The position numbers and the translations under genes were made by a program. A DNA stretch of 64,000 nucleotides from a virus (Duplodnaviria; Caudoviricetes). The notes under the pieces were generated by a model, which searched no databases, was not told where the DNA came from, and worked only from the letters and a program-made list of their open reading frames with translations. Every line of letters begins with the position of its first letter. Positions within the stretch are counted from its first letter, which is position 1. This document shows positions 22,076 through 53,000 of the stretch, piece after piece. The DNA lies in IMG/VR virus record IMGVR_UViG_3300021964_000054, positions 582 to 64,581 of that record. One strand, written 5' to 3'.

Positions 22076-22401
22076 CATTATATCATGGTACAGACCGTAG
22101 AAATTTAGGCTCCATCTTATCAAAAGGATTGTTAAAATCTGCTTTTGAAGGTGGAGTTTATCTTACAGACACAGCTGAATCAGCCTTAGCATGGACAGCA
22201 ATAAGAGTTGCTGCCGCAGGAGGTTCTGAGATTTTAGTTTGTGAAGTTGAAATTGACGAAAATAATTTGCAATTGGGATGTGATCACAGCCCTGCTATGC
22301 AAGAAATATTTGGATGTGGTGAATCATATGTGCACAAAGGCGACATCCCAACAAAGTGCATTAAAAATTATACAGTTTATGGCACTAAGAAAAATGTTTG
22401 A
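22072..22401 (+). CDS. ADP-ribosyltransferase-fold protein (Tpt1/KptA C-domain-like)
   Basis: LYHGT..NL.SI...GL, GVYLT, GESYV..GDIP. Confidence 0.65.
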   Translation: MTLYHGTDRRNLGSILSKGLLKSAFEGGVYLTDTAESALAWTAIRVAAAGGSEILVCEVEIDENNLQLGCDHSPAMQEIFGCGESYVHKGDIPTKCIKNYTVYGTKKNV

Positions 22402-32705: not shown

Positions 32706-35700
32706 TTATTGAAGTCTTTTTAATACATCAAGTCTATCAGAAGGATGGAATATGCTTCTGAAGTTTCTAATACCTGTAAGATCAGCAAAATCTTTAACTA
32801 ACTTAACGTCACCTTTTTCGTAAGGGCCTGATTTTCTTGAATAAAAAGCATCTTTCCAAACCTCTTGATAATACTCACTGTCATAACCAGGATCAGGTTC
32901 TTCACCCCCATTAATCATCATCGCCATCCCAAGACTCCACCCGTGATTGACCATTCTAATTAATGTATTAGCTTCTCTCACAAAAGGAACAGCTGTTGTA
33001 AAGTTTTTTACATACTCTGTAGATCCTGCCCCTACAGGGAACATAGACATTGCCTCCATTTTAACACCCCATATCACACGTATCATATTACCTGTAAGCA
33101 TATCTATTTCTTCATCATCTTCATCTTTACGCTTAACATAAGAAAGAAGCATGAAAGAAAGAATTCCTAGCATGCCCATTGCCATTGCATCACGCCTTGC
33201 ATGGTGAACTCTTCTCTTATAGAAATCTCCAATATCTTTTGTTGTGGTTTCACCATCTTCTCCTTTAATTACCATGGTATCAATTCCAGTTGATCCTAAT
33301 TTCTCCATAACTCTAGACCCCAAGAAAAACTCTCCTAGTGTTGCCTTTGCGCCAAATAGTTTCCAAGACTGCATCACGGCCCTCCAGTACCCCAAGGAAG
33401 CCTCACCACCTTCCCAGTTTGGTCTTAAGTACCCAAACCTATTAAGCATACCTGGAACCAAGAACTTTCTAAAGAAGAACATCGCCTTTCCTAGAAGTGT
33501 AGACTCTTTTTGTGTTTGATCAGATTTGGCGTAGTTACCTTGAGCTCGTCTTATTTCTGAGTAAATTGTATTTCTAACTCTATTTTCATCTTCTTCACTA
33601 AAATCAACATCTGCTCTTCTAACAAGTTGACCTTGTTCATTTTTTGCATATGCTTGATGAACCGGCACATAAACTATGTTGCCATCAGAATCTCTTTTAT
33701 ATGTCTTCTCACCTGTAGTAGGATCTACACTTGCTATTTCAGGGAATCTATAACTATTCATTATAGCATACATAACAGTTACTCCAATTTCTGTATCACC
33801 TTTATCCTGAAGTAAGAATCCTAACTCTCCAGGAGCAGTCAGTCTTTCCATACTTTTTCTCTTACGACCCCCAGACACATCCTCATAATATTTAATCATA
33901 TCTTTTTGAAGAGGATTATACATTCTATACAACATGGTTGAATCATGCAAATCGTGAACTCTACCCCAATCAGAAAAATAATTATGAATAAAACCATTGT
34001 AGCCATATACCATCTTCTTTGCCACAAGATAGTCTTCTCTACTATAGAAATCATTTTCATTTGAACCCGCTGCCAAAAATGCTTGAAGATTACCTGCTAC
34101 GTAGTTTTTTGTCTGGTTAGCTAAATCAAAACCAATCCTTACAAATGCTGTCCATCCAAAAACAGCACCGGCAATCTTTTGAAACTCTCTATTTTTTTCC
34201 TCAGAAGTTTGTCCAGAAAGGAACTTTTTAGACTCAAACTCTAAAAGTTTAATGACCTCATCTAGTTCAGCCTTTCTTTTTTCCATGTTTACTTCAACAC
34301 TTTCACCCTTTTCGTTCTCAATATATTGAACACCTTTAGTGGCCAATGCATCTCTTTGCATTTTAAGAAACTCAATTGAAGACTCGCTAATAGGAAGAAC
34401 TTCTTGCATTGCAATATTCATATGAGCTTCAGTAGTCCACTGCATTACCGCACCAATAACATCCTCAGTCTGTAAATCCTCTGATAGTTGATCTGCAAAC
34501 CTGAGTCTTAAAGACTGACCCAAATCACCAAAAACGTTTTCAACTTTATCATGTTGAGACTCTGTGGTCTTCAAGTGTTTATCAAGGAATATGTTTGCTT
34601 GCTTTTTAAATGCTGCCAAGAAGCCATTTCTAGCTACATTCTCTACAAGACTTGATGAAACACCAGGTACACCGTATCCAGTTTTTCTACCTTCAACCTT
34701 TTCCTGAAGACCAAAGAACATCTCTGTTAGAGCATCATATAACCTTTTTATGTCAGAATTGTTTTGTATGTCCAAATACTTTGGATTCATATTTTTTGAA
34801 GGTGACATTCCAGGCGTTATAACATACCTGTTATCACTATTAATCATCAACTCTTTAGGTAAAGGTATTCCATCAGGTCCTTTTATAAAGTTCTCATTGT
34901 AAGCACCAGGTTTTGTCATCAACCTTCCCTCAGCTTTCAAGCTTTCCATCTCTTGAGGATTCTTCTTAAGCTCTTTTATTTCCTCATTTTTTAATTCAAC
35001 TCCATCAAGAGTCCAGTTACCCAACTTCAAACGCTTTAGTTTATAGTATTTAGGATTAGGAACTGTCTCCATATATTGATCTTTTACAGCAGGATTAGGA
35101 ACATTCTCATAGTTAAATGACTTTGGCTGCTTGGTAGGAGCTCCGTGGTCAACTATAGATTTATATTTGTTAACATGATTCTTATTAAACCATTGCTCAA
35201 ATTTTTGTTCCTGCTGATCAAACTCAACAGTTGCTGCAATCAATTCTTCTTGAGCTTTTTGTATTTCCTCTTTGTTACCAGAAGATTTTGCAAGAATAAG
35301 TTTATTGTTTGCACCTCTCATGTCTCGTAATGCTCTTTCTAGTATTCTATATTTACTTGAATATTCTTGAGAATAATTTTCATTTACCTGTCTAGTTTTT
35401 ATAGCTCTAATTTGTTCTGAAATTATTCCAAGTTGCTTTTTAGTTTCCTTATCTAACCCAGATGGAGTTTCTCTCATCTTCTGAATTCTATCTTCTATCT
35501 TAGCCTCTAATTCATCAAGAGCTTTTATTTCTTCATCATTTAAAAACTTAGAAGTAAAGCGACCACCTTGTTTGTGAGGACGCATTATCTTTGATCTTTC
35601 TTCATACCATTCAGAAAGAATCATATCTTGAGATGTAAGACTAAAAAGTTGGTCATAAAGAGCACCTAAATCATCATACCATTCTTGACTAGGCCTTGTG

Positions 35701-38700
35701 ATTGTATTAGCTTTTCTCCATCTTTCATATGATTCTGGATCATCAGCAAACTGAATTTTTTTATTTCTATCCATTGCTCTGAAGTAACGATCATTTGTAT
35801 CATACTCATAGAGCTCATTAAATTTCTCTATACGTCTAGCGTACTCTTCATTTTCTTCAGCAGCCTCTTGAAACAATTTTCTCTGCTCAATGTCTAACTC
35901 AATAAGACGATCCCAGTCTTCATCATTTAAAAGAACCTCATCACCACTAACATGTCTTAAAAGTATCTCTCTTTCTAAATAAATATCTTGAAGCCTGACC
36001 CTTATACTTTCTGGAAGACCCAATTGAAGTTCATAAAAAGAGTCTACATAAGGAAGATTGGCATTAGCTCTCAACCATTCTATAAATTCAACATTAGCAT
36101 TTTCTCTTTCCTTAACCTTTGCCTGCCAAGTGTCGCGTGCAGTTTTGACTTCACCTTCAGATCCTGTATCAAAAATGCTCAAGTATTGAGCTTTGAGTTG
36201 GTATATCTCTTTGTTTAGAGCTCTAATGTTATCATCAAAAGATCTATACGTAGTTTCATATTCCTCAGAGTATGGCTTTGCTAAAAATAACTTGTTCCTT
36301 TTGGAAAGCTCTGTTGCACCTTTCTCCCTATATACAACTTCTCTCCATTCAGAGATAGCATCATTCAACTCTTCTAAGGTGTATCCTTTGTCTAAAAGTT
36401 CTTGTCTAATACTGTCAAACTCCATCATTGCAATATCGTTTACAATATTTCTTCTTGCTGTATTTTCTTGATTTTTAAGCATTTGTGTAAATGCAGAAAT
36501 ACCCAAATCTGAATTTGAAACAGAAGCAATGAAAGAGTCCATTGCCCAAGTTCTAAGCAAAGAATCTGAATTCCAAATACTTTGAGATCCTAGATAGTTG
36601 TTAACACGGGGATCCAAAATGCCATCAATATATTTCTCTAAACTTCTATCAGACCCATCAAAGTCTGAAAGTATTTCCTGAATTCTTACTATTTCAGACT
36701 CTATCTTTTCTATTTCAGATAGACGCTTCTTTCCTTCCGGTCCAATAGATTCTTCAAATTTAGACTTAAAGGTTTTGCTTATAAAAGAATAAAAAGAATC
36801 TCTCAGTCCTGTTAATAGTTGCTTGCTTTCAGAAGATCCTTCTTTAAGCTCTTTAAGCCTTTCTTGCAACTTTAAAAGCTTTGGTTCTAATGCCATCTTT
36901 AAATCTCTTTCAACTCCTTTGAAAACTTTTTCACCAGGAGTTTTAAGAACTTCCATCCAGACTGTTTTTGCAGCTTTCTTAAAGTTAGCCTCAATAGCTG
37001 AAAGCGCAATTCTAATATCTACTAGTTTTCTTGCAGCAGGATTATCTGAAGTAATTGTATTTGTGGGATCATCTATAATCTCCCTCATAATATCCTCTAA
37101 CTTTGAGGTGATTTCAGACAAGGTTTGAGACTTTTGGTATGCCTCAAATATTTGTTTTGTTTGACCTTTTAATGATTTAACAACACCTTTCTTTTTATTA
37201 GCAGTACTCATTATTTTTTCAAACTCTGAGAAAGATTCGTTTGAAACATCATGCATTAATTTTATTTCTGCCTCAACTGTTTCTAATGCTGTGTTAAAGT
37301 TTGCAGCATTTCTTACTGCCTCTTTATCAGCATGCGATGCTGTCCTAATTGAATTTATGATATTCTGAAAAGTATTTAAGCTACTCTTTCTTTCTTTGTA
37401 AATTTTCTCAAGTCGTTCATCTTTTGTCTCTCTAATCAAGGTGTTTATTTTCTGAAGCTGTCCCTTTACAACTTGATCTAAATCTTCAACAAACTTTTCC
37501 ATGTTCTCTTGAGAAGGCCTAAATGAATACGCTTCCTCAGGATTTCTTTTAAGGCGTTCTTGTCTTTCTGTTTCACCAGGAATAGGCATTGCTTTAGAAA
37601 GAGCCTCCTCAAATTGCTTTATATGTTCATCTATTGTTCCCCAAAATGTAGGCTGCTTATAGTTTCTTTTTGCAACAAGATTTACAGCTTGAGCATAGTA
37701 ATCTTGGTTTTCAAAAATATGAATAGCTTGTCCTTTGTATTCGTTAGTGTCTTTGTCAATATCATAAAGCAAGGAGAACACAGACTTTTTGTTAACATTG
37801 ATTCCATTTTGTTGCAGCATTCTATCATACAACTCAAGTTGAACCCTCCAAGTATCAAATGTATTTCTAGGTAGTTTTGCAATATCCTCATTTGTTCCAG
37901 GTCTAATTACAAGACTGTAAGAAGCCTCGCTTCCAAGCTTTGAGAAAGTGAACGCTTTATCAATTACAGTACTTGTACTAGCAACACCTGAGTCAGGATC
38001 AATGTCATTTCTAGACTTGACCATGTGTTCAACCTTTTTTGTCTTAAAGTCAATAATTTGAGCATTACCTCCACCATCAATTAAAAGCATATCAATTCTA
38101 CCAATAACTTTCTTATCATCAACAGACTGTCCAACAACTGTTATTTCAGGAAGCAATATTGCTCCTGTAAAGTTATAGTAGTCTAACTTTTCTACAAGCT
38201 CAAGACCCATCTTAAACATTTCATCTTCAGTTAGATTGATAATATCAAAAGGATTTTTCTTCACATACTCAGCATATCTTTTAGCAAAAAATGCTTCTGT
38301 GTAAAGTTCCTTTAAAGACTTGCCACTTCTAATAGAATCTTCTTGTGCGAACTCTAAAAGTTCGTGCATAAAAGTTCCAAATAATTTAAAAGACTCATAC
38401 TCTTTTGAATCTCCCCTAAACTCTGATTGCCCAAGAAAACGTGTTGCTGCAATTGTAACCTCAGGCTCTGCACCTTTATCCTCTTTATCTATATTCTCTT
38501 TAAGAAAAGCTTGATAAGTCTCATTCATTGCAATAAGCTTATCAATAGTTTCCTGCTGAGCTTTACCGGCTCTAAGTCTTACCCTATCTAGCATCTCTCT
38601 TTGAGCTGCGGCTCTTGATAATTTAAACTTATTTGAAGATCTAGAAAGTTGCTCATCTTTTTCTTGAACCTTGAAATTACTCATGAGCTTATCAGCTTCC

Positions 38701-38822
38701 TCTATAGTAGGTATCACATTACCATTTTCATGGAAAGCAGCCATAGCCATACCTTCACCAAAATGCTCAACAAGCTTTTTCCATTCTTCAGTACTTTTAT
38801 TTGGGCAAGAATTATTTTTCAT
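32706..38822 (-). CDS. giant virion ejection protein with N-terminal PD-(D/E)XK nuclease domain
   Basis: GTFMHELLE, PEITV, GRIDML, IIDFKT, QLELY; C-terminal QGNY..MFFFRKF and hydrophobic helices. Confidence 0.75.
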   Translation of the reverse strand: MKNNSCPNKSTEEWKKLVEHFGEGMAMAAFHENGNVIPTIEEADKLMSNFKVQEKDEQLSRSSNKFKLSRAAAQREMLDRVRLRAGKAQQETIDKLIAMNETYQAFLKENIDKEDKGAEPEVTIAATRFLGQSEFRGDSKEYESFKLFGTFMHELLEFAQEDSIRSGKSLKELYTEAFFAKRYAEYVKKNPFDIINLTEDEMFKMGLELVEKLDYYNFTGAILLPEITVVGQSVDDKKVIGRIDMLLIDGGGNAQIIDFKTKKVEHMVKSRNDIDPDSGVASTSTVIDKAFTFSKLGSEASYSLVIRPGTNEDIAKLPRNTFDTWRVQLELYDRMLQQNGINVNKKSVFSLLYDIDKDTNEYKGQAIHIFENQDYYAQAVNLVAKRNYKQPTFWGTIDEHIKQFEEALSKAMPIPGETERQERLKRNPEEAYSFRPSQENMEKFVEDLDQVVKGQLQKINTLIRETKDERLEKIYKERKSSLNTFQNIINSIRTASHADKEAVRNAANFNTALETVEAEIKLMHDVSNESFSEFEKIMSTANKKKGVVKSLKGQTKQIFEAYQKSQTLSEITSKLEDIMREIIDDPTNTITSDNPAARKLVDIRIALSAIEANFKKAAKTVWMEVLKTPGEKVFKGVERDLKMALEPKLLKLQERLKELKEGSSESKQLLTGLRDSFYSFISKTFKSKFEESIGPEGKKRLSEIEKIESEIVRIQEILSDFDGSDRSLEKYIDGILDPRVNNYLGSQSIWNSDSLLRTWAMDSFIASVSNSDLGISAFTQMLKNQENTARRNIVNDIAMMEFDSIRQELLDKGYTLEELNDAISEWREVVYREKGATELSKRNKLFLAKPYSEEYETTYRSFDDNIRALNKEIYQLKAQYLSIFDTGSEGEVKTARDTWQAKVKERENANVEFIEWLRANANLPYVDSFYELQLGLPESIRVRLQDIYLEREILLRHVSGDEVLLNDEDWDRLIELDIEQRKLFQEAAEENEEYARRIEKFNELYEYDTNDRYFRAMDRNKKIQFADDPESYERWRKANTITRPSQEWYDDLGALYDQLFSLTSQDMILSEWYEERSKIMRPHKQGGRFTSKFLNDEEIKALDELEAKIEDRIQKMRETPSGLDKETKKQLGIISEQIRAIKTRQVNENYSQEYSSKYRILERALRDMRGANNKLILAKSSGNKEEIQKAQEELIAATVEFDQQEQKFEQWFNKNHVNKYKSIVDHGAPTKQPKSFNYENVPNPAVKDQYMETVPNPKYYKLKRLKLGNWTLDGVELKNEEIKELKKNPQEMESLKAEGRLMTKPGAYNENFIKGPDGIPLPKELMINSDNRYVITPGMSPSKNMNPKYLDIQNNSDIKRLYDALTEMFFGLQEKVEGRKTGYGVPGVSSSLVENVARNGFLAAFKKQANIFLDKHLKTTESQHDKVENVFGDLGQSLRLRFADQLSEDLQTEDVIGAVMQWTTEAHMNIAMQEVLPISESSIEFLKMQRDALATKGVQYIENEKGESVEVNMEKRKAELDEVIKLLEFESKKFLSGQTSEEKNREFQKIAGAVFGWTAFVRIGFDLANQTKNYVAGNLQAFLAAGSNENDFYSREDYLVAKKMVYGYNGFIHNYFSDWGRVHDLHDSTMLYRMYNPLQKDMIKYYEDVSGGRKRKSMERLTAPGELGFLLQDKGDTEIGVTVMYAIMNSYRFPEIASVDPTTGEKTYKRDSDGNIVYVPVHQAYAKNEQGQLVRRADVDFSEEDENRVRNTIYSEIRRAQGNYAKSDQTQKESTLLGKAMFFFRKFLVPGMLNRFGYLRPNWEGGEASLGYWRAVMQSWKLFGAKATLGEFFLGSRVMEKLGSTGIDTMVIKGEDGETTTKDIGDFYKRRVHHARRDAMAMGMLGILSFMLLSYVKRKDEDDEEIDMLTGNMIRVIWGVKMEAMSMFPVGAGSTEYVKNFTTAVPFVREANTLIRMVNHGWSLGMAMMINGGEEPDPGYDSEYYQEVWKDAFYSRKSGPYEKGDVKLVKDFADLTGIRNFRSIFHPSDRLDVLKRLQ

Positions 38823-38823
38823 T

Positions 38824-41058
38824 TTATAAGCATTTAAGTTTGTCTAGTATATCTTGGTTGTTATATCCATTTCCAGCCAAAGCATTAGAAAGAATTTTAG
38901 TTTGTTTCCCAAACTCTTCAAGATCCATTGTTTTGCTTGAGAATCCATAAAGATAACGAATTGCATCTTCAGTAAAGTTTAAATCATTTAAATCTTGCAT
39001 TATTTTATTTTCATTTTCATCTTTAGCATTGTTTGCAGAGTCAGATTCTAATGCTTGGAAATAAACAAGACGATCATTAAAGTCAGGGGCCAAAATGTTA
39101 TCTTCATCAAAGTAGTCCCACATTTGATAATCATATGCATCCTTAGGTCTACCCATCATATTAAGTTTCTCATAAAAGGCATAATTAAAGTGAGCTAACT
39201 TCAAACCATAATCTGGATCAGGCACTGAAATATATTCTTCTGAAGTTTCTGGTCTTAAAAAGAAATCAAAGAGATACATCTGATCTATCTCTTCTTCTGT
39301 AAAATGTTCAAGTCTATCATTAAAAGAACCTGTTAATGATTTAAATCTATCTTTAAGTTCTTGATTTTCAGACCATATTGCATTCACTGTAATGTAGTAT
39401 GCATTCGCTTTTTGGTTGTAAAAAGTATATAGCATATCCATGTCAGGATACTTTTTAAGTATCTTCTTAAAGTAATCAGACTTATCAACGATATCTTCCA
39501 TCACAAGTTTCATGTTGCCCTGAATCTTGTATTTTTTTGCTTCTTTAAAGTTACCTTCTGAAACCAACTTTCTATACATCGCATCATTTTGAAGCTGCTC
39601 CTCAGTCATGTAATCTCTTTTGTCAAGACTTAGACCATGAATATCAGAAGGAACAATCATATCAATATCATGAAGCGCATCTATCATAGGTCTATAAACA
39701 GTGCCTTGAAGACGGTATGCTAAAGATCCTGTAATAATATTTCCCCAATCACTAAACCATTTCATAAACCCTAACGCTCTTCCACCATCTTTAGCGTTTT
39801 GAGTTTCAATGGTTTCTGTATAGGACAAAAGATTAAAGTCTGAAGTATCTTTCTTAAGTCTTTTTAGCTTAGACTTGTCCCCTGCTAATATATCTTTTGC
39901 AATAAGATCTGCTTCTCGCTCTATAGACGAATAACTAAGCTTGGCAAGAATGTCAGAAATAAAGTCAATTATTCTTTGGACAACACTCCAAAACTCTGAA
40001 TCCTGCTGGGCCTTATAATTTCTAACTAATGCTATACCAATGGCCTGACCAACTGCTTCTTTCTTGATTTTATATATGTCAATATTACCTTCAGAGGTTT
40101 TGTATATATCTTTGTACTGATTGAACACCCTTTCATAACCATCCCACTTTTCTATTTCATTAAACATAAAAGTGAACAACTGGTTTCCAGACTTCTTTTT
40201 AGAAATTGATCCTAACAGCTCAACAAAAGCATGTCCATACTCCTCAGGAAGAGTCAGCAAGTTTCTGTTCTTTGCGTAATAAATTGTTTTTGCAAGAACA
40301 TCAAATACACCAACACTATCAACTCCAAACTTTTCTTTAAGGTTATCTATCTCCTTATTTCTAATTTTAAAATCTGAGAAATAGTCAATTAGCAATGCTT
40401 CAAGTTTTTTGTCTAACGGCTCTTGCACAGCTTGATAGTATTGGCGATCCGCTTCTTTTACTATCTCCTTAGAATAAATAGATAAAACTTCTGATACTCT
40501 AAATTGTTTTAGACTAGGATTATTATCAAGTATTGATATAAATTGCTTTCTAAATTCTGGAGCCATCCCCACTCTTTTAAGCTCAGCGTCAAGTTTCTTA
40601 TTAGATCCAATTGATTTTACAACTTTGTTTACACCTTTTAATCTTTTTTGAACCTTCTCCAAGTTTGTCAGAACATCATCTACTTGAAATAAATAGTCAT
40701 CATCAAAATCTTCACCGGCCCTTTCTGCATCCTCTTTAAGCATTGCTCTTGCTTGTTCAGTGTTGACCTTAAGTAGATAAGACTCATAATACTCTTCAAT
40801 TATTTCTGGACCTGGCTCAAATACAACTTCATGCCCATTTGTTCTCTCAACAACATAAGCCATCTTTCCACCATAATCCCTAGCAGATCTTTTCAAAAGG
40901 CTTTGTGCAACTTGATATGACTGACCAGGGAATTTAAAAAGAGCATTAGACACAAATAAAGTATTTGGACTAACTTTTTTAATATTACCTGTTTCATAAG
41001 TTTTGACAGCTTTCTTTATAAGTGCCTTTTTAATATCAACTTTACATTTTAGTGCCAT
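38824..41058 (-). CDS. virion protein: degenerate zincin + Pol-beta-type nucleotidyltransferase
   Basis: LPEEYGH; IITGSLAY.LQG...HDIDMIV; K....GRPKD.YD. Confidence 0.65.
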   Translation of the reverse strand: MALKCKVDIKKALIKKAVKTYETGNIKKVSPNTLFVSNALFKFPGQSYQVAQSLLKRSARDYGGKMAYVVERTNGHEVVFEPGPEIIEEYYESYLLKVNTEQARAMLKEDAERAGEDFDDDYLFQVDDVLTNLEKVQKRLKGVNKVVKSIGSNKKLDAELKRVGMAPEFRKQFISILDNNPSLKQFRVSEVLSIYSKEIVKEADRQYYQAVQEPLDKKLEALLIDYFSDFKIRNKEIDNLKEKFGVDSVGVFDVLAKTIYYAKNRNLLTLPEEYGHAFVELLGSISKKKSGNQLFTFMFNEIEKWDGYERVFNQYKDIYKTSEGNIDIYKIKKEAVGQAIGIALVRNYKAQQDSEFWSVVQRIIDFISDILAKLSYSSIEREADLIAKDILAGDKSKLKRLKKDTSDFNLLSYTETIETQNAKDGGRALGFMKWFSDWGNIITGSLAYRLQGTVYRPMIDALHDIDMIVPSDIHGLSLDKRDYMTEEQLQNDAMYRKLVSEGNFKEAKKYKIQGNMKLVMEDIVDKSDYFKKILKKYPDMDMLYTFYNQKANAYYITVNAIWSENQELKDRFKSLTGSFNDRLEHFTEEEIDQMYLFDFFLRPETSEEYISVPDPDYGLKLAHFNYAFYEKLNMMGRPKDAYDYQMWDYFDEDNILAPDFNDRLVYFQALESDSANNAKDENENKIMQDLNDLNFTEDAIRYLYGFSSKTMDLEEFGKQTKILSNALAGNGYNNQDILDKLKCL

Positions 41059-41064
41059 GAGTTC

Positions 41065-44000
41065 TTAACAATTATCTTCATCATTTAAATCAATACCAGG
41101 TTTACCTTTAGGCTTCACCTTGTTTTCATCAGTTGGATCTTCATCTAAAAGACCCTTAAGCATATCCTCTGTATCCTTAAACTCTTCATCAGTACCCACA
41201 ATATTACCATTATAGTCTTCAAATTCCATTGAAATCTGACCAGCATCTTGTGCAGGTATAATTGGTTTTTCAGGCTTTTCAACTGAAGGCGTTTCAGATA
41301 CATCTTCCTCAACTTCTGCACTTTCAGTTTCTAAAACAATGTCCTGAATCGTACCATCATAGTATCCATAGATGGCAACCAAGTTATCATTTAATGGAAC
41401 AACCTTATCAAGATTGTTTTTTATTTCAGAATTCACCTCCACAGGTTTAACGCCATTAGCTGTGCCTAAAGTAATATGAGGATTTTCATTTGTTGATTTA
41501 TCATTCTCTAACACAAGTGCATCAATCTTGTCAGTAATAAGTCTACCTATAACTTTTAAGCTTGTTCTTTCTCCAACCTGAACATCAAGTCCACCTCTAT
41601 AAGAAACTGTCATATGATGAGCGTGTCTATTGGGCATACTAGTTGGGTACTTTTCATCCATTTCCTTTCTGCTTACAAATGCACCGGTATAGACAACGTT
41701 TCTTTTAGCAGGAGTACGCTTAGTATCTGGGTCGTTTGGATTTACTGTATTATTACCCTTGTCAATGACTTCTGTTTTTGATATAAGCCTTTTATAACGC
41801 TTTGCATCTTCTTTTGTAAATCCTAGAGGACTTATCATTTCAGACGAAAACTGTTTAGGTATTGCAGTGTATGTAGCTTTCTCACCTAGAATAGTCATTC
41901 TATTAGATCCTTCAGCTAATGAATTAACCAAAGTTTCTCCCATGTTCTTGTCATCTGATGTATCCTCATTACCTTGATAGACATAATAAGTATCTTTAAT
42001 CTTAATTAATGGTGGGAAAGCAAAGGTATTAATAGTGTCATCATATGATATACCCATCTTTCTTCCAATCTCATAAATAGCAAGCTTTTCTTTTTTATCC
42101 TTACCATCAATAGACATATCTATTGTAAACTCAGCTTTTAGCGTACCAGGATTAAGATTAAATGAACTAGCAGACTTTTTAAATACTTCCTTTTTTTGTT
42201 TTGCTGTAAAGCTAAACACTGATGAAATTGCATTTCTGACAGCATCCTTTGCCTCTAAAATATCATCCTTAGTATCACCTTCAAGAATGTTTTTAACTAA
42301 CCTTGAACTTTTGTTTTTCTTTTTCGCATCATAATACCAAGACAATCTTTTTATCTCAGGAACAATAGCTTCACCCTTTTCGTTTTGTTCAGCTAAAGAA
42401 TAAGCAACTTGTGTTAACAGGTTATCAAAGAAATCATAGACCTCATCATTTGACATATCCTCTTTGCCAAAAAACTGCCTAACCTTTGACAGTACTATTT
42501 GCTTAGCTTTTGCAGAATCACCTTCTTCCAAAGAGTCAATTTCTTGAGATGCGTCTTTAAGTGATAAAATAAACTCGTCAATACCTTTTGAAATAGGTGC
42601 TAACAAACTAGGTGGAAAGAACTTTAAAAATGATCCAGTAGCTGTAATCATACCAGTTCTTGCCAACTCATGATAAAACAATCTTTTAACAAACATCCTA
42701 GCCTCATTATCTGTAGGATGGTTATATAGAAAAGCAAGATCTTGAGCTATTTCTTCAGCTAGAGTACCTTTGAGTTTTGATCTTTCATAAAGCTTTATAA
42801 CTTCTTCATTCAATCTAAGAACTCTATCATTTGACATTGCATTAGCAGTAGCATCACCTTTTTCATTTCTCAGATATTTTAAGAACTTGTTATCTGAATA
42901 CTTTGATTTAAACTTAGAAATCTCTGTAGATAAATTATGAGTAAACCAATAGTCTGGAGTAAATGTATCAAGTAAATTCTTGTCATCTTTATCTATAAGA
43001 TTTTGAAGCTCAGGATTTGAAGATGATCTTGAACCTGGGAATGACTCTAAGAACTTTCTAATTCCAACAAATGCTGTTATTGTTTCTGCAATATGCCTTT
43101 TGTCTTTAAATGACTTTGTGAACAACCCTACCAAAGGCCTAAAGAATGGAGACTTTTCTAAGAATAGCTTTGAGGCCTGTTCATTTAGATCAGACAGCAT
43201 CTCCTGCATAGTATTGTAAACAGAATCTTTTGAGAAGATTCTAGCAGCAGAGTCTATTGTAAATATACTTCTGTCATTTGTAATCTCATAAATAGCATCA
43301 AGTAGATTATCTATCTCAGTAAGGGTAGGATTTAGTCTCTTGAACATATTAGTTACCCTAGAAGCCTTAGTTAAAGTATTGCTCTGATTAACCTGATCAA
43401 TATACATTTTTGTAAGCACAAACTCCATTGCTGAATCAGCAAGACCAGTTCCATCTTCAAGTCTAAGATCAAATCCTATTTGAGTAGGTGTAAGAGTGTT
43501 TGAGTTTAAAGCATCTTTATCAATTGTCTTAGGAGTAAAATCAAATATTATTTTTGAACTAATTACTTTGCCAGACTCAACATCATAAAGACCTGCAAGA
43601 ATCAAATTTTCAAGAACATCTGGGTCCAACTGATCATACAAGTGACCAGAAAAAGTTTTGAAGAGTTCTTCAGTATCTGTAGATAGTGCATTCTTTTGAT
43701 ATTGAACATTCTGAGAAGCTATTCTTACAGAAGGCATGAAGTTAAATGCTGCAACCATTGTAGGATCTAACCCTAGACCTATCATTGAAAGAGTTGTGTT
43801 TACATTTACATCATTCCATTGGAGAGCTGCAGGTATAGGTTCTTTTGTAGCATCTGCAAACATACCCAAGATATTACCTATCAAAGCAATAACTCTTTGC
43901 TGTTGCTCATTAACATGTGAAAACTTATCCTTAATCACTCTCTTACCATCCTTATCTAAATAGTCCCAAACAACACCATCCTCATTAAGTTTAAGGTCAT

Positions 44001-47000
44001 ACTGACTTGCAAGAGCTAAGAACTTGTTCATAACAGCTGTAATACCAATACCATCTTTGTTCATTTGGTTTTCTACTTTAGAACTGATAGCATTATCAAG
44101 AGTATAAAGATTACTTTTTGTTGTCATCTCTTTCAAGTCTAATCCAAAACTATCTAGTATCTTGACAAATTCCTCTGTTGAAGCTCTTTGGTTAATGAAT
44201 AGTCTGTTGAACACAGCTTCATTAGTCAAAACTTCTAGAGTAGCATCTAAGTTCTTATTCTGCTGTTTATAACTAACCATCTCAGAATATACAGGATCAG
44301 AGTTGAACTGATCAATACTTGCAGGAAGACCAGAATTTCTAAGAACATCCATTGTTGCTTGATACCCAAATAGTGCATCTAACAAATCTTTTGATCTTTG
44401 CATGAAATTAATCTCTGTATTCAAGTCAGCAATAATTTCACCCTTTTCTTTTCGTTCTCTCCAAGCATCTCTATCAAGACGATTGTTTTCAGTTCTTTCT
44501 TTTGCTTCTACATAGTCCTTTTTAATGTCACCTTTAATTGCAATTAAAGATTTTCTTCTCTGTTTAACAGCAGAATAAATAGTCTTATCTTCAACTTCAA
44601 GTGCCACATACATAAGATCTTCATTTGTAAACCCTAAAGCACCAAGAATATAATCTAAATCACCATCTTTTGGAAAACTAAAAGAACTTGTGGAATCTAT
44701 AAGTTCTTGTTTTTTATCCTTAATTGCATCTTTAAACTCTATACTATTTTGCATAAAGTGTAACCACTCAATAAATTGTGCTGTATTTTGATCAGCAAGT
44801 TCATATCCACTATAGTCACCGTAAAGATGGAAATTACCTGCGGCATCTTCATAAAATGCTTTCATCTGACCAAACAATGAATCAATATCAAAGTCAGATC
44901 CAGAAAGAAGATGTATAAAGTGAGGGACAATTACATTATTAGATTTTGACTCATCTACAAAGTCAACAACCTTAATTGCAATCATAGATCTCTTATCCTC
45001 AGTTGGAATACGAACTCCAAACATTTTGTTTATTCTCGCTAACCAAAACTGTTTTTGACTTGGATTATTAAAAAATGGAGCAGGTACAATTGCTTCTACC
45101 CAATGTGTTTTGATACCAGTTTCTGGATCCACCTCAACACTGACACTTAAAGGCCTTACTCTATACTTAGTATTGTCAGAGTAAAGACTAGGATTTTTAG
45201 AAATTTCTTCAGAAGTAATTATACGACCTGTTTCAATATCTTCTAAGACTTCATATCCAAAGGAGCTTTCATGAAAATTCTTAAATCCAAAAGCCTTCTC
45301 GTCTGTAACATTGTTACTATACTGAGCCATAAAATAATATTCCAAAGTTCTTCTTATTACTGGAAGGTTTGGACTAAACTTAGGCTTTCCATTTTCTGTA
45401 GCAAAATAAGCGAGAATTGAGGATGCTGCTCCTTGAGATTCTAGTCCTTCTCTTATTACATCATATAACTTTGCAACATCAATATCACCACCCTCTCTGA
45501 TCACTCTTTTAAAGTATTCTAACCTACCTTTCATTACAGCATTCAAAGAGTCTTTGTATTTGTAAAAACTGCTTGATAAGTCTTCAACTGCAAGTTTCTC
45601 TGACTCAGTTAAAGGTTTACCTTCTCTTATTGCCTCAGCTTCTAAGACTCCAAGTACATCTTTAGGATTTATATCTGCAGGTAAAAGAAGTTTCTTTTGA
45701 ACGGAAACTTTTGCATAATCCTTAACACCACTTGTTTCTACCTGAACATATTTTGATCTATTTGGAACTGGAACTGATGAAAGATTTAGGTTAATCAATC
45801 CCTCAGAAGTAAAGTTAGTACCTACAGATTCATTTGACAAAACTTGAACCGGCAGTAATGTTGCATTTTTACTTGCTGAAGTATCCATTACTTGATCTAC
45901 ATTATAATGCTCCATTGAGTTCAGCATTCTATGAAGCATTTTTCTATGCGGCATAGGCATAAAATAAGAATGCACCTTGCTTGTAAGATTTGAAATATCT
46001 GCTTCAAGCATTGAAATTTCTTGAGCAGGAGCTTTGATTTTTATCAGCTCTTCTATAGCTTTTCTAGTATCATAAATTTGAAGATACAAGCTATGTATTT
46101 CATCGTATATTCTGTTTACTGTTTGTCTACTTGCATTCTTAGGTATAACAACATAACTCACATCCATTCTGTCAATGTGGGCTTCTGAAAGTTTATGATA
46201 GACATTTAGTCCTGCCGTAACAGTCTTTTTAGAGTTTAGAACAATCTTCAAGGACTTTAGATAATTTGCTTCATCTTTAGTAAGCTTTCTGTAATGCTTG
46301 GCTATCATCAAGTGTTTTGCAGTTTCATCTAGCCTACCTGTTGAATCATAAATATCCATATGATGCATCAACAAAGAATGAGACTGACCATCATATGTTT
46401 CATGGAAAAACTTTCTATCTCCATCTACGTCCTGATCATACGCTTCTAAAAGTTCTAATCTTTGTTCTGGTGAAAGAGTTGGGTCATTTTCAATCTCAGC
46501 TCTATTATAATAAGGCCCTTTATCTAGATGGCCGTCATATATAAATGCTTCAATTGTATTTAAATATGCAACTTTATGATATCCTTCCTTTAAATTACTA
46601 CCAGAAGCAACAACTTTCTTAAGACGTTTTACATAGTCTTGATTATTTTTGACATTCATGGCTATATCGCCATCCATAAGTTCATTAAGCATCAATGCAT
46701 TTGACCAATAATTCATGAAGTGATCAAACAAAACTGACTCTAACACACTATCTGACCCTGCAGATTTAGGATAAATTGAATTTAACTTTAATGTTCTGTC
46801 TTGGAAAGGATTCTTTTTTCTTTTTGACTTCACACTTATGCCACTATCCCTCATGAAATCTGGTAGTAAATCAGACTTATAATAAATCGTTGGTTGATCA
46901 GTAGTTTTAGATGGAACAATAACCTTTTCTACAACACCTTGATCTACAAGTTTTTGTAAGTGATTGTCATATGTTTGTTGTGCAAAAGTATCCAAGCTAG

Positions 47001-50000
47001 ACAAAAGTTCATCTATAAGTTCTACGGGGATGTCTTCAAACTTTTCAGCACCAACAAGTTCATTTGTTTCAGTATCTAAGATTGAACCACCTTTTGCCAA
47101 TTCAATTATCTTGTCACGAAGCTCTGGAACATTTTCAAAAAAGTCTGACAACTTGTTAAAGTTGTAAGCTCTTAAACTATCAGCATCAACTTCAACAGTT
47201 CCATCAGGATTTAATGTCGCATTGTACTTGTTTATGTTTTTGTTGTCTAGGCCTAATTCATAATTTTCCTTTCTTTCAAGTCTACTATTCCACTCACGCT
47301 TTATCCTATTAAACTCTTGGCGAACAACAGCTTCAAGATCCTTTACAATCAAAAGATGCTTATCTTTATATAAAAGCTTTCCTTCACGTTCTCTGAGTGA
47401 TCTTGTTTTATCTGCAGTTTTTACAGCAGATAAGTTGACAAAAGACTTATGTAAAGAGCTTGTCAGAAAGTTTGTTTGTGTTGCTTCAAGCTGGTGAAAA
47501 CTTCTATCATAAACTTGTATAGTAGTTCCATCCTTGCCGGTAATAGTTTTTCTAGACAAGAAAGACAGCATGTTAAGAATATACAATGACTTTGCATCAA
47601 TATCTTTAAACACTTTTCCATCTTTGTATTCATCTTTCCCAACTATCTGTTGAACACCCCCAAACAAAGAACTTTCAAAATTATTTAAGAAGAGTTGCAT
47701 TTCTTTTGATTGATCTGTTACTTCACCCTTAAGGATTGGTCCTAACATAGGATTATCTAAAAAGAAATCTCTGACAAAGTCATCCCAATACATTTCATCT
47801 TCAAGTGCTCCCTCTAAACCAAGAGTTCTCAATCTCTGAGCAAGCATTGCCATTGGGTTGTATTTGCTAAAGCGATATATGGATTTTCCTTCAGCATTTA
47901 AAATAGTACTATGAACTATACTAGGATCATATTTAACAATATAAGCAGATGCACTTTTTAATATGACCATGAATCTTCTGATATTATCAATCTTACTTTC
48001 ATCATCAAGTTTATTTGAAAATGCAGGATCAGGATTATTGCCCTTGTACATAGAAGTTAAAAGGCCCCCTAAACTTCTAAAGAAATCTTCCTCCAAGTAT
48101 TGACCTTCTCTAATAAAGTTTTCGTTTAAATCATAGAACTCCACATGAGAAGGGTCTAAACCTAAAAGAGGTTGCTTGTATTCATTGTTATGAATAGCCA
48201 TCAAAGAAAGTCTAATTAATGACTTAGGAACATCAATCCCAAGTATCTTCATGTTTTCGTTAAGCTCATTTGTTAACTTATTCAATCTAGACTTAGGACT
48301 AACGCTTGTTAGTATCTTACCCTTAGATGTAACTGTAATCTCTTTAATTAAGGATAACAATTTTCTGTGAGCATCCTTGTATACTTTTGTGTTTGCATTC
48401 TCTGAGTGAGAAATATTTATACTAGTGATAATCTGATTTCTTTTATCCCTAACGCTTCTTTCTAAAACTTTATCTGTAACTCTAAAGTTAAACCTCTGTT
48501 GAACAGGTGGCAATGGAGATGCTAACTCTGCTTCAGTTAAAGGCTTAGGAGTACTGACATTAAACATTTTCCAATTCAACTCCACATTGTTAAACACATC
48601 TACAAGCATGTTGTAAAGCCTTTTGTTACCAGGCTGACCATCAATCATTTTTGTAGAGTTTTCTATTTCATTATGCAAAGCCTCAAAATCAAGTCCGGTG
48701 GAAACACGCCCATCTTCAATCATAGTCTCTGCAAAAGACTTTATACTGCTAATAATCTTATCAGGAGAAAGATTAGAAGTAACCTTTACAACACTAGTAA
48801 ATAAATGCTCCCCATCTAACATTCTAGGTATAACAGCTCCAGTTGCATCATCTATCTCATCTCTTCTTATTGTAGAAAAGAATCGTCTTACTTGAGAAAC
48901 ATATGAATCTATTACATTCATATTCCCTAGAGTAACGTCAAAATCATTAGACCCTTCTAGTTCTTGATTTGCAGAATTAGACTCACTATCACTAACCTTT
49001 AAGTTCTCATCATCAAAAATTGCCTCAACTTCATCAGCATTAACAATAACCTCAACATCACCAGATCTAATTAGATCCATACGAACTGCAGAGTCATACT
49101 TCTTTTTAACAAGTTTCTTAAGAATCTGATAAGAATACTGACCACTTGTGTTGTCAACATATCCTACACCTGTAAGGTTATATGGATTTTTAGTTGCTCT
49201 ATTATCATATCTAGAATCACCAGTCAAGTTTATATCATCAGCCTGATAACCTTTCATTCTTGCACCAAGCATAAATCTATAAGCATTAAACATGTCGCCA
49301 TACTTCTGTTTTATATCTAACGCACTTGCCTTAGTCTTTTCATTTTGATTTATGATCAAGTCAATATTATAAATGCTATCAATGATTTTAGTTGTTACAT
49401 TGTCAAACTTATCGTCAAAATTGTCGTTAGAATCATCTTTTAACAACTCTCCAACAACCATATCTATAAGTCTGTTTTGCTCAGAAGTTTGAAGCCAATG
49501 AATATCAGTATTTCCTTGTTCATTTAAAATAATGTTTGGACCAGGTATAAGTTCAAACGCAACTTGACCGTCATACATATTTGATTTTATAGCTGCAGAC
49601 TTGTAATAGCCAGTTGCTATTTTGTCATAAATAAGATCAATATCATTCTCATAAGCCTTAAACGCTCTAATAAGTCTTTCTAAAAGATCATAAAGAAAAC
49701 CAATTATTCCTGATGGCTTCTTTTTCTTTGACTTTTGATTCATATAGTTTTGAAAACCATCCGCTAAAATTTCTTCAGCTACAAGTTCTGCCATTCTATC
49801 AATGTTATACTCATACCCTCTCTCTTCTGCAAACTTCATTAAAGCTTCTTGAGTGAACTTCTCATAATGCTTAGAGTCATTCATCACTGTCTGAATGAGA
49901 TTTCTTCTCTCGCTGTTTGTCATTAAGTATCTAAACACACCATGAAAAGCCTCATGGAATACAACACCCTTTACTTTAAGTTGATCATTTAAATAGATTA

Positions 50001-53000
50001 CTCTATTTTTAAAGAGCCCTAAAACAGTTCCATCTATTTTTGACAAGTCAACAACATCCTTAACACCATCAAGTGAAATACCAAATTGAGGTAGTATTGA
50101 AGACAAGAACTGAACCTCTGACATAAGCTCGCTGTCAGAAATTATCTGAACGCCTTCAGGAGTTTCTACAAGTTTGAATCTCTCAACGCGATTGAAGTCA
50201 TCATCATTATCATCTCTTTTGTCTTCTTTTTGTTTTCTATATTCTTCTGCCAAGTAGTCCTCAATCCTAGTTAACTCATCTTTAATGTCAGCCTTAACCT
50301 CTTGACCTCTAGCCATATTTAATCTTATGGATTCAATCTGGGCTTGATCTGGCTCTGGTTCAGCCTCAAGCATTTGCAAATTCATATTTGCATCTATCAA
50401 TGCATTATCAATGTTGATAATATCTTCAGAGAGTTTTGTCTTTCTATTCTCAGCTCTCTTTACTGAAGTCAGTGCTTCTTGCTGTTCTTTAGTGAGAGTC
50501 TTAACAGGGCTAGATCCCGCTTCAGGTTTTTTAGCAGGCTTTTTTTCTATCTTAGTATTATCAATTTTTTTCCTGTCTTCACTAGAAGTTGGTCTAACAC
50601 CTTTAGGTTGAATTGAAACAGTCTTAGAAGATGCAGACCTTACATCAAGATTTGATAAGCTTTTCTTAAACCAGTTGTTATCCTTTTCATTGTAGCTTCC
50701 AACATGGATTTTAGGAATAAGTCTTCCATCTTCAAGAATGTCAAAAAACAAATACTCAGGCTTATACTCCCCGCTAAAAGTTGCATCTTTTTCAAACAGT
50801 TCAAAAAACTCAGCATTACCTACATCAATAGTTTCACCGCCAACTGTCATCTTCTTTGTCTTCAAAGGAGTGACTATTGCTCTCATTATCTCATTGCTAA
50901 ACTCCTGGAGCAACTCGGTTTCAACATAATCAACTAGTTCAGACATTTCTTTTGTCTCAAGACCATCAATCTTTGATTTGTAAATGGTATTATAAAGTTC
51001 CATTACCCCTTCAATAGTCGATAAATCTAAAGTTTGCAATGCCTTGTTTGAAGCAACTGCAGCCTTTACCTTTTCACTTTTTGACATCTTTTCATAGATG
51101 CTTTTTATAACAGACTCATTAACAGGAAACCTGAACCCTAACTTCTTTCCTCCAGTGATTGCAACTTGATTAGTCTGAACTATATCTCCAGTAGTAGCCT
51201 CAGTATAAGGCTCAGTAAAATCCCCTCTCTTTGAACCATAAGGTCCAAGTTCTATTTGTAGCTTGTTCCCTTTCTGTGGTTGCCCAGTAGATAAAGAAAA
51301 GCTTAATGCATACTGACCTTCACCATCTTTTATTGCACCCTTGAAATTAAACGCACCTTGTTCTTCAAAAGATTTTACCTTTCTAGCCTTTTCGGCAGGT
51401 TTTGCAGTTATTGCATCAAATAGTTGAGAAATATATGAAGCAAGCATTGGAGCAGCAGACAATGCACCACGAGATTCTAATACTCTATGACCAGAAGCAT
51501 TTCCTTTTTTGTCAAACTTAATAACAAAGTTTCTTGTTATTCGTTTTATGACACTATTGTTTATTCTGCGCAAAGTACCATCTTCAGATCTTTGGGACTC
51601 AATTATCTTTTCAATTTCTGCGTCCTCTGCTTTGAAGTGTTCAGCTGCCCAGTCTTCATAATTTAGTTGATCTCTAGCATAGTCAACATCAGTGATTAGT
51701 ATTGGTTCACCAGTTTCAGTTTTAACCTCAATAAACTCATTAGAAGCAAGAAGCGAAACCATTGAGTATGAAACTTTTCCTCCAGGTGATATATCTTTTT
51801 TAATGTAAAAAGGAACTTTTCTACTGTCCTCCCTTTTGATAACATTGTTTTCAGCATCAACAGTTACAACCGGCAATTCTAAAGAAATAGAATCATCTAC
51901 TTTTATTTGACTAAGCAAATCTTTTCTTTCTGTTTCATGTCTTTTTGAAGTAACAGAATATGAATCAAAAAATTCATTTGTTATCTCAACACTGTCTTTA
52001 CCTTGCTCAAGTGCCTCATTAAACTTTTCTCCAACAACTTCTTTAAGGTTAGAAAGATGTGCAGATGCATTTGAAATAGATCTCAAGTCAGACTCGCTAA
52101 GTGCAACTAGTGAACCAGTTGAACTTTGCTTTAATGAAAGCATTTGAATTTGTTTTAAGTCCTCAACATTTGAAAGATCAACTTTTGTAGTTGTGTTATC
52201 AGCATCAACAAATACCATGTCATCATTAGAATGAACATAGAATATCTGACCAGTTGAAAGAACCTTACCCATTATTGCAAAAGAGTCTTCTGAAGCTTTT
52301 GGTCTTGAAACTGTAAGCACTCTTGCAGAAGGATTAGATTTAAGCTTTGCAACCTGCTGAGTAGTTTCAAATGTCTCATGGTTTCTATTAGATAAAAGTT
52401 TAAACTTTTTTTCATCTCTAGCTAAAGACTTCATTCTTTGAACCCGTGAATCACCTACAGGGCCAACCTTAACTGCAAAAAACTTTATGCCAGATTCTGG
52501 AGCTGACATTTTTGACAGAGCTTTTGTTAAGTCTGCTTGTTCCATTGGATCTGCAGCTCTAAACTTAAAACCTGAAACAAGTTCATCGTTTCTAAAAATT
52601 TCCTCACCGTTGTTAGTTCTTGAAAATACTTGTGGTCTTGACTGCTTATCTACTAATATCTCATCAGGGCTTATTGGCTCAAGTAAACCATCAGAATTTA
52701 ACTTAAGAAGTGCATTTGGAGATTCTGATTTAGCATCTCTAACAGCCTCTATCATAGTACCATCCTTTAGAATAACCAAGTAATTAGAAAGACCAGCATA
52801 GTCTGAAACCTCTCCATTTATATCTATATACTCTGACTCAAATGTGAGCATCTTGTCAAAGGCCGCATCAACTATTTTGAATAAGCGATTTTTGTAAACA
52901 TCATTCCTTGCAATGGTTCCCATCTTAGCAATGTTACCCTTAATCTCCTTTTTGATTTTTTCAGAATAGTTTGAACGATCTTGATCAGTTTCAAAGTCAT

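Follow-up and report, generated by a model that had tools for sequence, protein, structure and literature searches.

A predicted CNPase-like 2H phosphoesterase domain in the variable C-terminal slot of a crass-type RNA polymerase-like protein

Within a 64,000-nucleotide stretch of viral DNA (the window; positions 582 to 64,581 of the Caudoviricetes record IMGVR_UViG_3300021964_000054), giant genes are grouped in a block on the minus strand, and one of them is a single uninterrupted frame of 4123 codons. The protein that it encodes, P0001, resembles the RNA polymerases (RNAPs) of crass-type phages and has near its C-terminus a small domain with the features of a 2H phosphoesterase (Table 1). 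Considering the predicted structure of this domain together with analogies to characterised enzymes, we lean towards the view that it is an active-looking, minimal 2H domain of the CNPase branch, carried as an interchangeable cassette in the C-terminal slot of a crass RNAP-like cargo protein, and that it would open 2',3'-cyclic phosphates after co-injection.

A preliminary description of the window had drawn attention to two HxT motifs in a domain of about 115 residues that follows a linker and is continued by GVKPVEVN. These elements are present as quoted; the coordinates given for the motifs pointed to the right place and were slightly short. The motifs lie in HHMTVSY (residues 3940-3946; 41599-41619) and PHITLGT (residues 3986-3992; 41461-41481), the second followed by ANGVKPVEVN, and 46 residues separate the catalytic-type H3941 and H3987. 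Each has the form H-x-(T/S)-x with a hydrophobic fourth residue that defines the 2H superfamily (HMTV, 3941-3944; HITL, 3987-3990). Because the pattern H-x-[TS]-[LIVMFA] occurs just five times across the 4123 residues of P0001, the pair is, judged from sequence, far beyond chance.

Conservation of the motifs was examined across homologues recovered by an exhaustive phmmer search, in which residues 3905-4040 of P0001 were compared with 1.84 billion representative proteins. This search returned 251 metagenome-derived homologues at E<=1e-3, 114 of them at E<=1e-10. An alignment of 90 near-full-length copies of the domain (of the 150 listed, the other 60 were omitted for partial coverage or E>1e-8) conserves both HxT motifs and contains the blocks Y-T-A, N-x-F-Y-H-H-S-T, G-R-L-T-T-D-K-V-D and P-H-I-T-L-S-T-A-x-G-x-x-P-x-x-S-N. 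In a second alignment, consisting of the P0001 copy and 41 short family members, H37, T39, H83, I84 and T85 (H3941, T3943, H3987, I3988 and T3989 of P0001) are invariant in all 42 sequences. Neither the C-terminal 294 residues of P0001 nor the solo family member P0014 finds a match by tblastn (E<=1e-3) in 50,697 GenBank phage records, and the family lacks a dedicated Pfam, NCBIfam or PHROG model; for these reasons we regard the mini-2H family as under-described.

To place the domain structurally, an AlphaFold2 model was built from the 42-sequence alignment. Mean predicted local distance difference test (pLDDT) is 88.7 and the predicted template modelling score is 0.82, with pLDDT below 60 at both linker ends (59 for the first 10 model residues and below 50 for residues 133-136). 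Each HxT motif of the model lies on a beta-strand, in keeping with the bilobed alpha+beta fold of 2H enzymes, in which the motifs occupy central strands. The Foldseek comparison that the preliminary description had proposed gave 41 matches in the PDB at E<=1e-3, and among the matches listed every one is a CNPase catalytic domain. An unbiased VIA-align search of the model against 48,161 representative chains, independent of Foldseek, places only CNPase (2xmi_A, Z 11.3) at Z>=8. The next 12 rows, at Z 4.1-5.5, are also 2H enzymes, so that the top 13 chains all belong to this superfamily; these rows include Deinococcus CPDase (cyclic phosphodiesterase), Acb1, Arabidopsis CPDase, LigT, rotavirus VP3, a Burkholderia-phage phosphodiesterase, YjcG, Usb1 and ASCC1. 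Motifs, conservation and predicted fold thus agree with the 2H identity that had been proposed for the domain.

Ranking of the 2H clades was obtained by VIA-align re-alignment of the best 994 chains from Foldseek. Mouse and human CNPase superpose on the model with Z 10.5-11.8 and 2.1-2.4 A over 117-120 residues at 19-22% identity, the best being mouse CNPase (Z 11.8, 2.2 A, 120 aligned residues, 21% identity). The kinase-CPD portion of the Candida tRNA ligase Trl1 (6u05, chain residues 639-832) follows at Z 10.8 and 3.3 A over 121 residues, and goldfish RICH at Z 8.6 and 3.6 A over 121. Every other 2H clade, including plant CPDase, VP3, Acb1 and LigT, remains at Z <=6.0, such that the predicted structure lies nearer to the CNPase/RICH/Trl1-CPD group (Z 8.6-11.8) than to any of them. 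A superposition of about 119 residues on CNPase at 2.1-2.2 A would place the two histidines of the model side by side. CNPase chains mutated at H230, H309, T232 or T311 show 18-20% identity to the model, compared to 20-21% for chains without these mutations, with the minimum of 18% in the double mutant H230Q/H309Q; these rounded values fit a placement of the model His and Thr residues on the CNPase catalytic residues and provide a weak hint of it. As modelled, the domain is a genuine, catalytically intact-looking and stripped-down 2H domain of the CNPase/RICH/Trl1-CPD branch.

Matches outside the PDB point the same way. In a viral structure library the best matches are CroV E3T4N1 (771 aa) and a Marseillevirus 'RNA ligase' (765 aa), with E 4-6e-6 and root-mean-square deviations of 3.7-5.7 A. 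The tRNA-ligase CPD family PF08302 matches 31 of the 42 aligned family members at E<=0.1 (best E 2.6e-8), and the ESM Atlas neighbours are clusters of viral 'hypothetical protein' entries, 24-36% of whose members carry PF08302. The likeness to the CNPase branch extends to both H-x-T-x dyads, to the G/S...(V/I)xP segment that follows the second, and to the superposed fold. It ends at size and setting: these domains span about 200-215 residues compared to about 116 here, the His-His spacing is about 79 in CNPase (H230 and H309, taken from PDB mutant names) and 46 in P0001, and the P0001 domain has no kinase or ligase joined to it, is viral and rides on phage cargo, and falls below the Pfam cut-off.

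Characterised members of the CNPase/RICH/Trl1-CPD branch convert 2',3'-cyclic phosphodiesters to 2'-phosphates, CNPase acting on nucleotides and the Trl1 CPD on RNA ends. By analogy, the two His-x-Thr dyads of the P0001 domain would open a 2',3'-cyclic phosphodiester without metal, leaving a 2'-phosphate and a free 3'-OH. Candidate substrates would be RNA ends bearing 2',3'-cyclic phosphate (RNA>p) generated by metal-independent host RNases, free 2',3'-cyclic nucleoside monophosphates (2',3'-cNMPs) and ADP-ribose 1'',2''-cyclic phosphate (Appr>p). The domain would enter the cell on its cargo protein, with the DNA or ahead of it, since homologues of the carrier are found in virions, and by this timing it would act before phage gene expression.

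A different substrate is proposed by the Acb1-like alternative, according to which an injected 2H enzyme evades immunity by cleaving 3'-5' or 2'-5' cyclic or linear oligonucleotide messengers via a 2',3'-cyclic intermediate. The messengers in question are cyclic GMP-AMP (cGAMP)-type signals of CBASS, cyclic oligoadenylates of type III CRISPR and molecules resembling 2',5'-oligoadenylate (2-5A). Acb1 belongs to the same superfamily and uses the same catalytic dyads; Acb1 (7t27), rotavirus VP3, mouse hepatitis virus ns2 and poxvirus cGAMP phosphodiesterase are among the structural matches; and NADAR and ART-like modules, which occupy the tails of related polymerases, are of a counter-defence type. 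Such a role has also been predicted, in the text available, where 2H domains are joined to MuF, portal or polyvalent proteins (PMC5512222, PMC9503650). Against this, Acb1 aligns at Z 5.6 and 4.3 A over 104 residues (Z 5.4-5.6 for 7t27 and 7t26) and VP3 at Z 5.7, which is the generic level of all 2H clades compared to 8.6-11.8 for the CNPase branch; BFVD entries for Acb1 reach E 7e-3 to 3e-2, and searches of PDB, Pfam and NCBIfam returned no Acb1-type sequence match to the domain. We know of no CNPase, RICH or Trl1-CPD member that cuts 3'-5' cyclic dinucleotides, which counts further against an Acb1-like activity. Of the two comparisons drawn in the preliminary description, that with tRNA-ligase CPDases is borne out by 6u05, whereas that with Acb1 holds at the superfamily level only. 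On this structural ranking we place 2',3'-cyclic-phosphate substrates ahead of cyclic oligonucleotides cleaved in the manner of Acb1, to which the domain is no more similar than 2H enzymes are in general, and we consider the Acb1-like alternative unlikely.

Acb1 of T4-like phages is likewise a 2H enzyme encoded by a phage, comparable in size, bearing two HxT motifs and acting in counter-defence; in contrast to the P0001 domain, Acb1 is a free early protein without virion fusion, and it cleaves the 3'-5' bonds of cyclic oligonucleotides. Rotavirus VP3, a 2',5'-phosphodiesterase, offers a parallel in architecture, where a C-terminal 2H domain sits on a virion-packaged enzyme of RNA synthesis and capping and counters a nucleotide-signalled host defence. 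VP3 differs in belonging to another 2H clade (Z 5.0-5.7), in its origin from a eukaryotic double-stranded RNA virus and in its substrate, 2-5A.

The identity of the carrier was addressed by tblastn with residues 2401-3300, a segment that includes the DFDID motif at 2848. This segment matches 73 phage records, with 22-28% identity among the matches listed, and the records are mostly named crAss-like phages, uncultured crAss-type phages or Bacteroides phages. Several matches lie under genes annotated as a putative RNAP (catalytic) subunit. For the cultured Crassvirales phage Rudgehvirus jaberico, the match falls within a coding sequence of 4098 aa (12,297 nt including the stop) annotated 'putative RNAP catalytic subunit', and the preceding gene has an RNAP subunit annotation and a ZnMc note. 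The DxDxD motif and the homology to annotated RNAP subunits are those of the crass virion RNAP of the phi14:2 gp66 and crAss001 gp49 type. The open reading frame (ORF), the tblastn matches and the Rudgehvirus jaberico counterpart support, at the level of sequence, the fusion noted in the preliminary description and point to a giant RNAP-like protein of Crassvirales as the carrier, with the 2H domain joined in frame at its C-terminus.

P0001 also has the architecture of a polyvalent protein, in that 4123 residues combine an RNAP motif, an HExxH motif and the 2H domain within the giant minus-strand gene block. Zincin domains are described as typical of polyvalent proteins in the sections of PMC5512222 available; a Pfam scan gave no match supporting the zincin-like HEAFH motif of P0001. 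In virions of crAss001, gp47, gp49 and gp50, which are associated with the RNAP, were detected by mass spectrometry, and the authors model the RNAP proteins as cargo ejected ahead of the DNA (PMC10172136, text available). By homology to these virion proteins, we infer that P0001 is packaged and injected.

A survey of the domains found at the C-terminus of related RNAPs, suggested by the preliminary description, indicates that the 2H domain is one occupant among several. A word-indexed search with P0001 residues 2700-3900 provided 80 relatives of 2626-4717 aa at 25-50% identity; 77 are at least 3364 aa long, and the alignment of the 3 shorter ones begins at P0001 residue 1389-1481. The 2H profile is present in P0001 only, that is, in one of the 81 proteins and none of the 80 relatives. 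BLAST alignments to P0001 end at query residues ~3881-3934 in 75 of the 80, beyond which the relatives have tails of 0 to ~800 residues; as a single figure, the limit of homology is near residue 3892. A Pfam scan of eight such tails identified RNase H in P0151, P0212 and P0221, NADAR in P0180 and P0221, and DUF7831 in P0161; three were empty.

For a module census, tail segments served as BLAST probes on all 81 proteins, and every probe matched in tails alone. In addition to the single 2H domain, RNase H occurs in 8 of the 81 proteins, NADAR in 3, DUF7831 in 1 and a pair of zincin-like and ART-like modules in 4, two of them with PF18760. A small beta-rich domain was found in 29, an unnamed module in 5 and a SLOG-like segment, judged by eye, in 1. 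The remaining category, tails with none of these modules, comprises 31 proteins, in 19 of which the tail is no longer than 114 aa. Beyond the modules lies a recurrent terminal peptide, which reads ...(D/E)xNC in 29 proteins and ...KC(L/F/I) in 41 (70 of 81 together); P0001 ends in ...GIDLNDEDNC. Similar Cys-bearing ends are found on the neighbouring cargo proteins of the window (Table 1), and they may be a tag for packaging, ejection or processing. Because the relatives' tails hold RNase H, NADAR, DUF7831, ART-like, other or no modules, the position behaves as a swappable effector slot, and by sequence comparison the 2H domain is the occupant of a hypervariable slot for payloads, with the conserved body on one side and the conserved end peptide on the other.

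A separate feature of the tails is the peptide (T)QPST(S/T/N), which occurs 10 times in the 81 proteins, always within the C-terminal tails that make up 7.6% of residues. Its bearers are P0161, P0162, P0164, P0165, P0181, P0201 and P0212, and the listed occurrences fall at module boundaries; P0001 has only a loose look-alike, SETPSVEKPEKP, after the 2H domain. The peptide could serve as a linker or be cleaved by a protease, or it could have been left behind by recombination at a joint. When DNA of close relatives was sought for inspection of the cassette joints, no relative was found. Recent transfer of the 2H cassette was considered and rejected, as no GC anomaly marks it (0.35-0.37, against 0.30-0.36 around it).

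Attachment to the polymerase is one of several arrangements in which the domain occurs. Among the 150 of 251 homologues that are listed, 56 are no longer than 200 aa; the 94 that exceed this length have the 2H domain in the N-terminal third (47), the middle (21) or the C-terminal third (26). At least 35 of the listed homologues have lengths of 1000-7041 aa, and some of the metagenomic proteins may be fragments. Three 2H-bearing giants (P0031, P0052 and P0061) share with P0001 the polymerase segment GSD(F/L)D(I/V)DK and carry the 2H domain near their N-termini; other parts of P0061 match only crAss-like or uncultured phage records. The proteins adjacent to P0001 have 2H-bearing homologues as well. 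The window's 744-aa protein is homologous to P0030 (762 aa) and P0009 (1259 aa), where the 2H domain lies at the C-terminal end, and to P0019; its 1881-aa protein is homologous to P0025 and P0061, and its 2038-aa protein to P0011. Co-domains in 63 homologues of 201-1300 aa include ART-PolyVal (6), AAA_33 (2), HAD_PNKP (1), LPD23, LPD3, GNAT and nucleotidyltransferases. ART-PolyVal and LPD domains are hallmarks of polyvalent proteins according to the available sections of PMC5512222. At 22 IMG/VR loci the 2H domain lies in frames of 125-228 aa (12 loci) or of 671 to >3084 aa (10 loci).

A maximum-likelihood tree of the 90 domain copies, labelled as solo, mid-size or giant, requires 32 label changes compared to a shuffled mean of 41.8; from the starred branches alone, each label has to change at least 8-12 times. 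P0001 forms a group with P0004, P0003 and P0002 (support 93/91, branch not starred), and P0052 and P0061 fall in other well-supported clades, such that P0001, P0052 and P0061 represent three separate clades. The constant trait of the family is carriage on or beside virion cargo proteins, and polymerase attachment is not constant. The mobility of the 2H domain between cargo proteins of different kinds argues for delivery, and not transcription, as the selected context.

These arrangements bear on a second alternative, in which the domain is directed at RNA, either as a Usb1-like 3' exoribonuclease or RNase acting on host RNA or as an activity that trims or marks the early transcripts of its polymerase in cis. 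Tethering of the 2H domain to an RNAP, its presence in three more proteins with the RNAP motif and the occurrence of Usb1 structures among the matches (Z 4.0-4.4) are consistent with such a role, and an RNase function has been proposed for 2H domains of polyvalent proteins in the text available of PMC5512222. Similarity to Usb1 is weak compared to that with CNPase, however, and the domain is found equally on non-polymerase cargo homologues and as a solo protein and is absent from 80 of 80 related polymerases, so that a transcription-coupled function is unlikely and the RNA-directed alternative as a whole appears improbable. The interpretation in the preliminary description is partly supported, and it is refined in two respects, in that the domain resembles CNPase and Trl1-CPD more than Acb1 and is a swappable payload more than an accessory of the polymerase. 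A non-catalytic passenger, that is, a decayed or structural module serving for instance as a spacer or packaging aid, would suit the absence from all 80 relatives and the lack of a compositional trace of recent acquisition, but it is very improbable given four intact catalytic residues that are invariant family-wide, a confidently predicted fold and a large family under clear sequence constraint.

Several observations weigh against an active CNPase-type enzyme delivered as payload. PF08302 scores 19.3 bits (E 8.4e-4) on the P0001 copy, missing the cut-off of 23 and covering profile positions 176-220 only, and the family profile matches CNPase, in the segment HVTLGCAADVQPVQT, through the second motif only and without significance (E 0.68). 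PHROGs contain no family for P0001 or its C-terminal 294 aa, and NCBIfam returns only noise for the mini-2H domain. About 120 of the 205-216 residues of the CNPase catalytic domain are aligned; as the P0001 domain is about 90 residues shorter, substrate-binding elements may differ and the substrate is not safely transferable. As the domain is present in only one of 81 proteins, the polymerase can do without it. RNA repair takes more than a CPDase, and no repair partner was matched in the record, which is 53% complete. The phage also encodes a second predicted cyclic-phosphate enzyme, next to which the 2H domain could be redundant or act on a different substrate. In sequence searches of the PDB, the best family-profile match (E 0.051) is an unrelated fimbrial protein and 16 of 20 rows are CNPase at E 0.68-2; whole P0001 gave 0 matches at E<=1 against PDB chains, and the domain alone gave one irrelevant match at E 0.45.

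Fusion of 2H domains to phage cargo has precedents. In 2017, Iyer, Burroughs, Anand, de Souza and Aravind reported 2H domains both within polyvalent proteins and encoded by stand-alone genes of phages; in the text available they report no linkage to RNA ligases, propose an RNase role or degradation of nucleotide signals, and describe N4-type virion RNAPs as polyvalent scaffolds (PMC5512222). Iyer et al. in 2022 considered MuF- and portal-fused 2H domains as probably injected against nucleotide signalling (PMC9503650, sections available). The P0001 domain shares with those polyvalent cases its small size within giant multi-domain proteins beside virion genes, the co-occurrence with ART-PolyVal and LPD domains and the existence of solo forms. 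It differs in its scaffold, which is a crass-type DxDxD RNAP-like protein with a defined C-terminal slot, in contrast to the MuF, portal and N4-type RNAP scaffolds presented in the available text of PMC5512222, whose main text contains the word 'crAssphage' 0 times. N4-like virion RNAPs are likewise giant, have a zincin-like domain and carry swappable effectors such as ART, lysozyme and PBECR (PMC5512222, text available); unlike the unrelated crass-type DxDxD module, they have a T7-like polymerase fold, and the sections of PMC5512222 available mention no 2H fusion to N4 RNAP. Our literature searches, outside the supplementary architecture tables of PMC5512222 and PMC9503650, yielded no printed account of a crass-type RNAP with either a 2H domain or a variable slot for payloads.

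To our knowledge, almost nothing is known of injected Crassvirales cargo beyond transcription. Crassvirales are the most abundant human-gut phages according to the available text of PMC10172136, and at this locus the giant RNAP-like protein also serves as carrier of interchangeable small enzymes. If the substrate is a 2',3'-cyclic phosphate, a part in the conflict of phage and host would be indicated for such molecules; a cyclic oligonucleotide as substrate would extend Acb1-like evasion to a new 2H branch and to a virion-delivered form. A broader and speculative proposal, to which we assign a low probability, is that of an addressed payload. Here the slot would be bounded by the conserved body and by the Cys-bearing end peptide (...NC or ...KCL), 2H, RNase H, NADAR and ART modules would be shuffled into it among phages and cargo proteins, and the stripped-down CNPase of P0001 would erase 2',3'-cyclic phosphates at time zero. 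Its targets could be RNA>p or 2',3'-cNMPs that signal damage or alarm or that inhibit translation. We know of no demonstrated phage counter-measure against molecules with 2',3'-cyclic phosphates.

Table 1. Positions, in window coordinates, of P0001, its parts and other features discussed in the text.
Feature	Position	Strand	Product or residues	Basis
Giant RNAP-like cargo gene (P0001)	41065-53436	-	4123 aa, 2H domain at C-terminal end	ORF translation, tblastn, relatives
2H phosphoesterase domain, predicted CNPase/Trl1-CPD type	41353-41700	-	residues 3913-4028, ~116 aa	AlphaFold2, Foldseek, VIA-align, PF08302
HxTx motif 1, H3941-M-T-V	41605-41616	-	model strand E37-42	alignment, AlphaFold2
HxTx motif 2, H3987-I-T-L	41467-41478	-	model strand E83-88, then GTANGVKPVEVN	alignment, AlphaFold2
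Hydrophilic linker KGNNTVNPNDPDTKRTPAKR, from conserved RNAP body to 2H domain	41701-41760	-	residues 3893-3912	
Acidic low-complexity linker 3' of 2H domain	41122-41352	-	residues 4029-4105, ~77 aa	
Conserved C-terminal end peptide KVKPKGKPGIDLNDEDNC	41068-41121	-	residues 4106-4123, 18 aa	
DFDID, DxDxD metal-binding-type motif of RNAP module	44881-44895	-	residues 2848-2852	
HEAFH, zincin-like HExxH motif, N-terminal third of P0001	49942-49956	-	residues 1161-1165	motif only
Cys-bearing C-terminal end, RNAP-like protein	41068-41121	-	...KPGIDLNDEDNC	
Cys-bearing C-terminal end, adjacent 744-aa protein	38827-38853	-	...DILDKLKCL	
Cys-bearing C-terminal end, 1881-aa protein	near 53452	-	...IIQKLKDIHGCQK	
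cREC_REC, 'cyclic-phosphate processing receiver domain'	3320-3829	+	169 aa	PF20274, E 2.8e-13, 50.8 bits, cut-off 27
ART-fold-like ORF	22072-22401	+	109 aa	DUF3990 E 1.3e-5, PARP 2e-4, Tpt1/KptA 0.069, all below cut-off
SegE-type GIY-YIG homing endonuclease, inside replication module	12271-12732	+		PF19835, E 1.3e-29

Searches for partners of the 2H domain found no match to RNA ligase (PF09414, PF09511), RtcB (PF01139) or AAA_33 kinase (PF13671) in the 64,581-b record, which is 53% complete and for which the PF09511 control matched nowhere, and full RNA repair is an unlikely job for the 2H domain by itself. An association of PF09414 with 2H domains was considered and set aside; the two co-occur in 5 of 22 IMG/VR records (3 of 3 at >=90% completeness) and lie within ~11 kb of each other only in one jumbo-phage record.

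A replication module with helicases, primase, ribonucleotide reductase and other genes is encoded on the plus strand of the window. Within this early/replication strand, the cREC gene is the second predicted cyclic-phosphate enzyme noted above, such that cyclic phosphates appear to matter to the phage twice over. No ligase or Nudix gene was found among the nine neighbours of the cREC gene. The only match to PF01885 (Tpt1) reaches 14.4 bits and falls within the ART-like ORF of 109 aa. A 2'-phosphate left by a CPD-type 2H enzyme would be a substrate for removal by Tpt1; judged from sequence, the connection of this ORF with the 2H domain is too weak to be drawn.

Two further genes belong to the minus-strand block. 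Directly downstream of the RNAP-like gene lies that of the 744-aa protein (38824-41058), which gave no Pfam or PHROG match. The 2038-aa giant (32706-38822) includes a PD-(D/E)XK nuclease domain at residues 139-266 (PF12705, E 1.6e-7).

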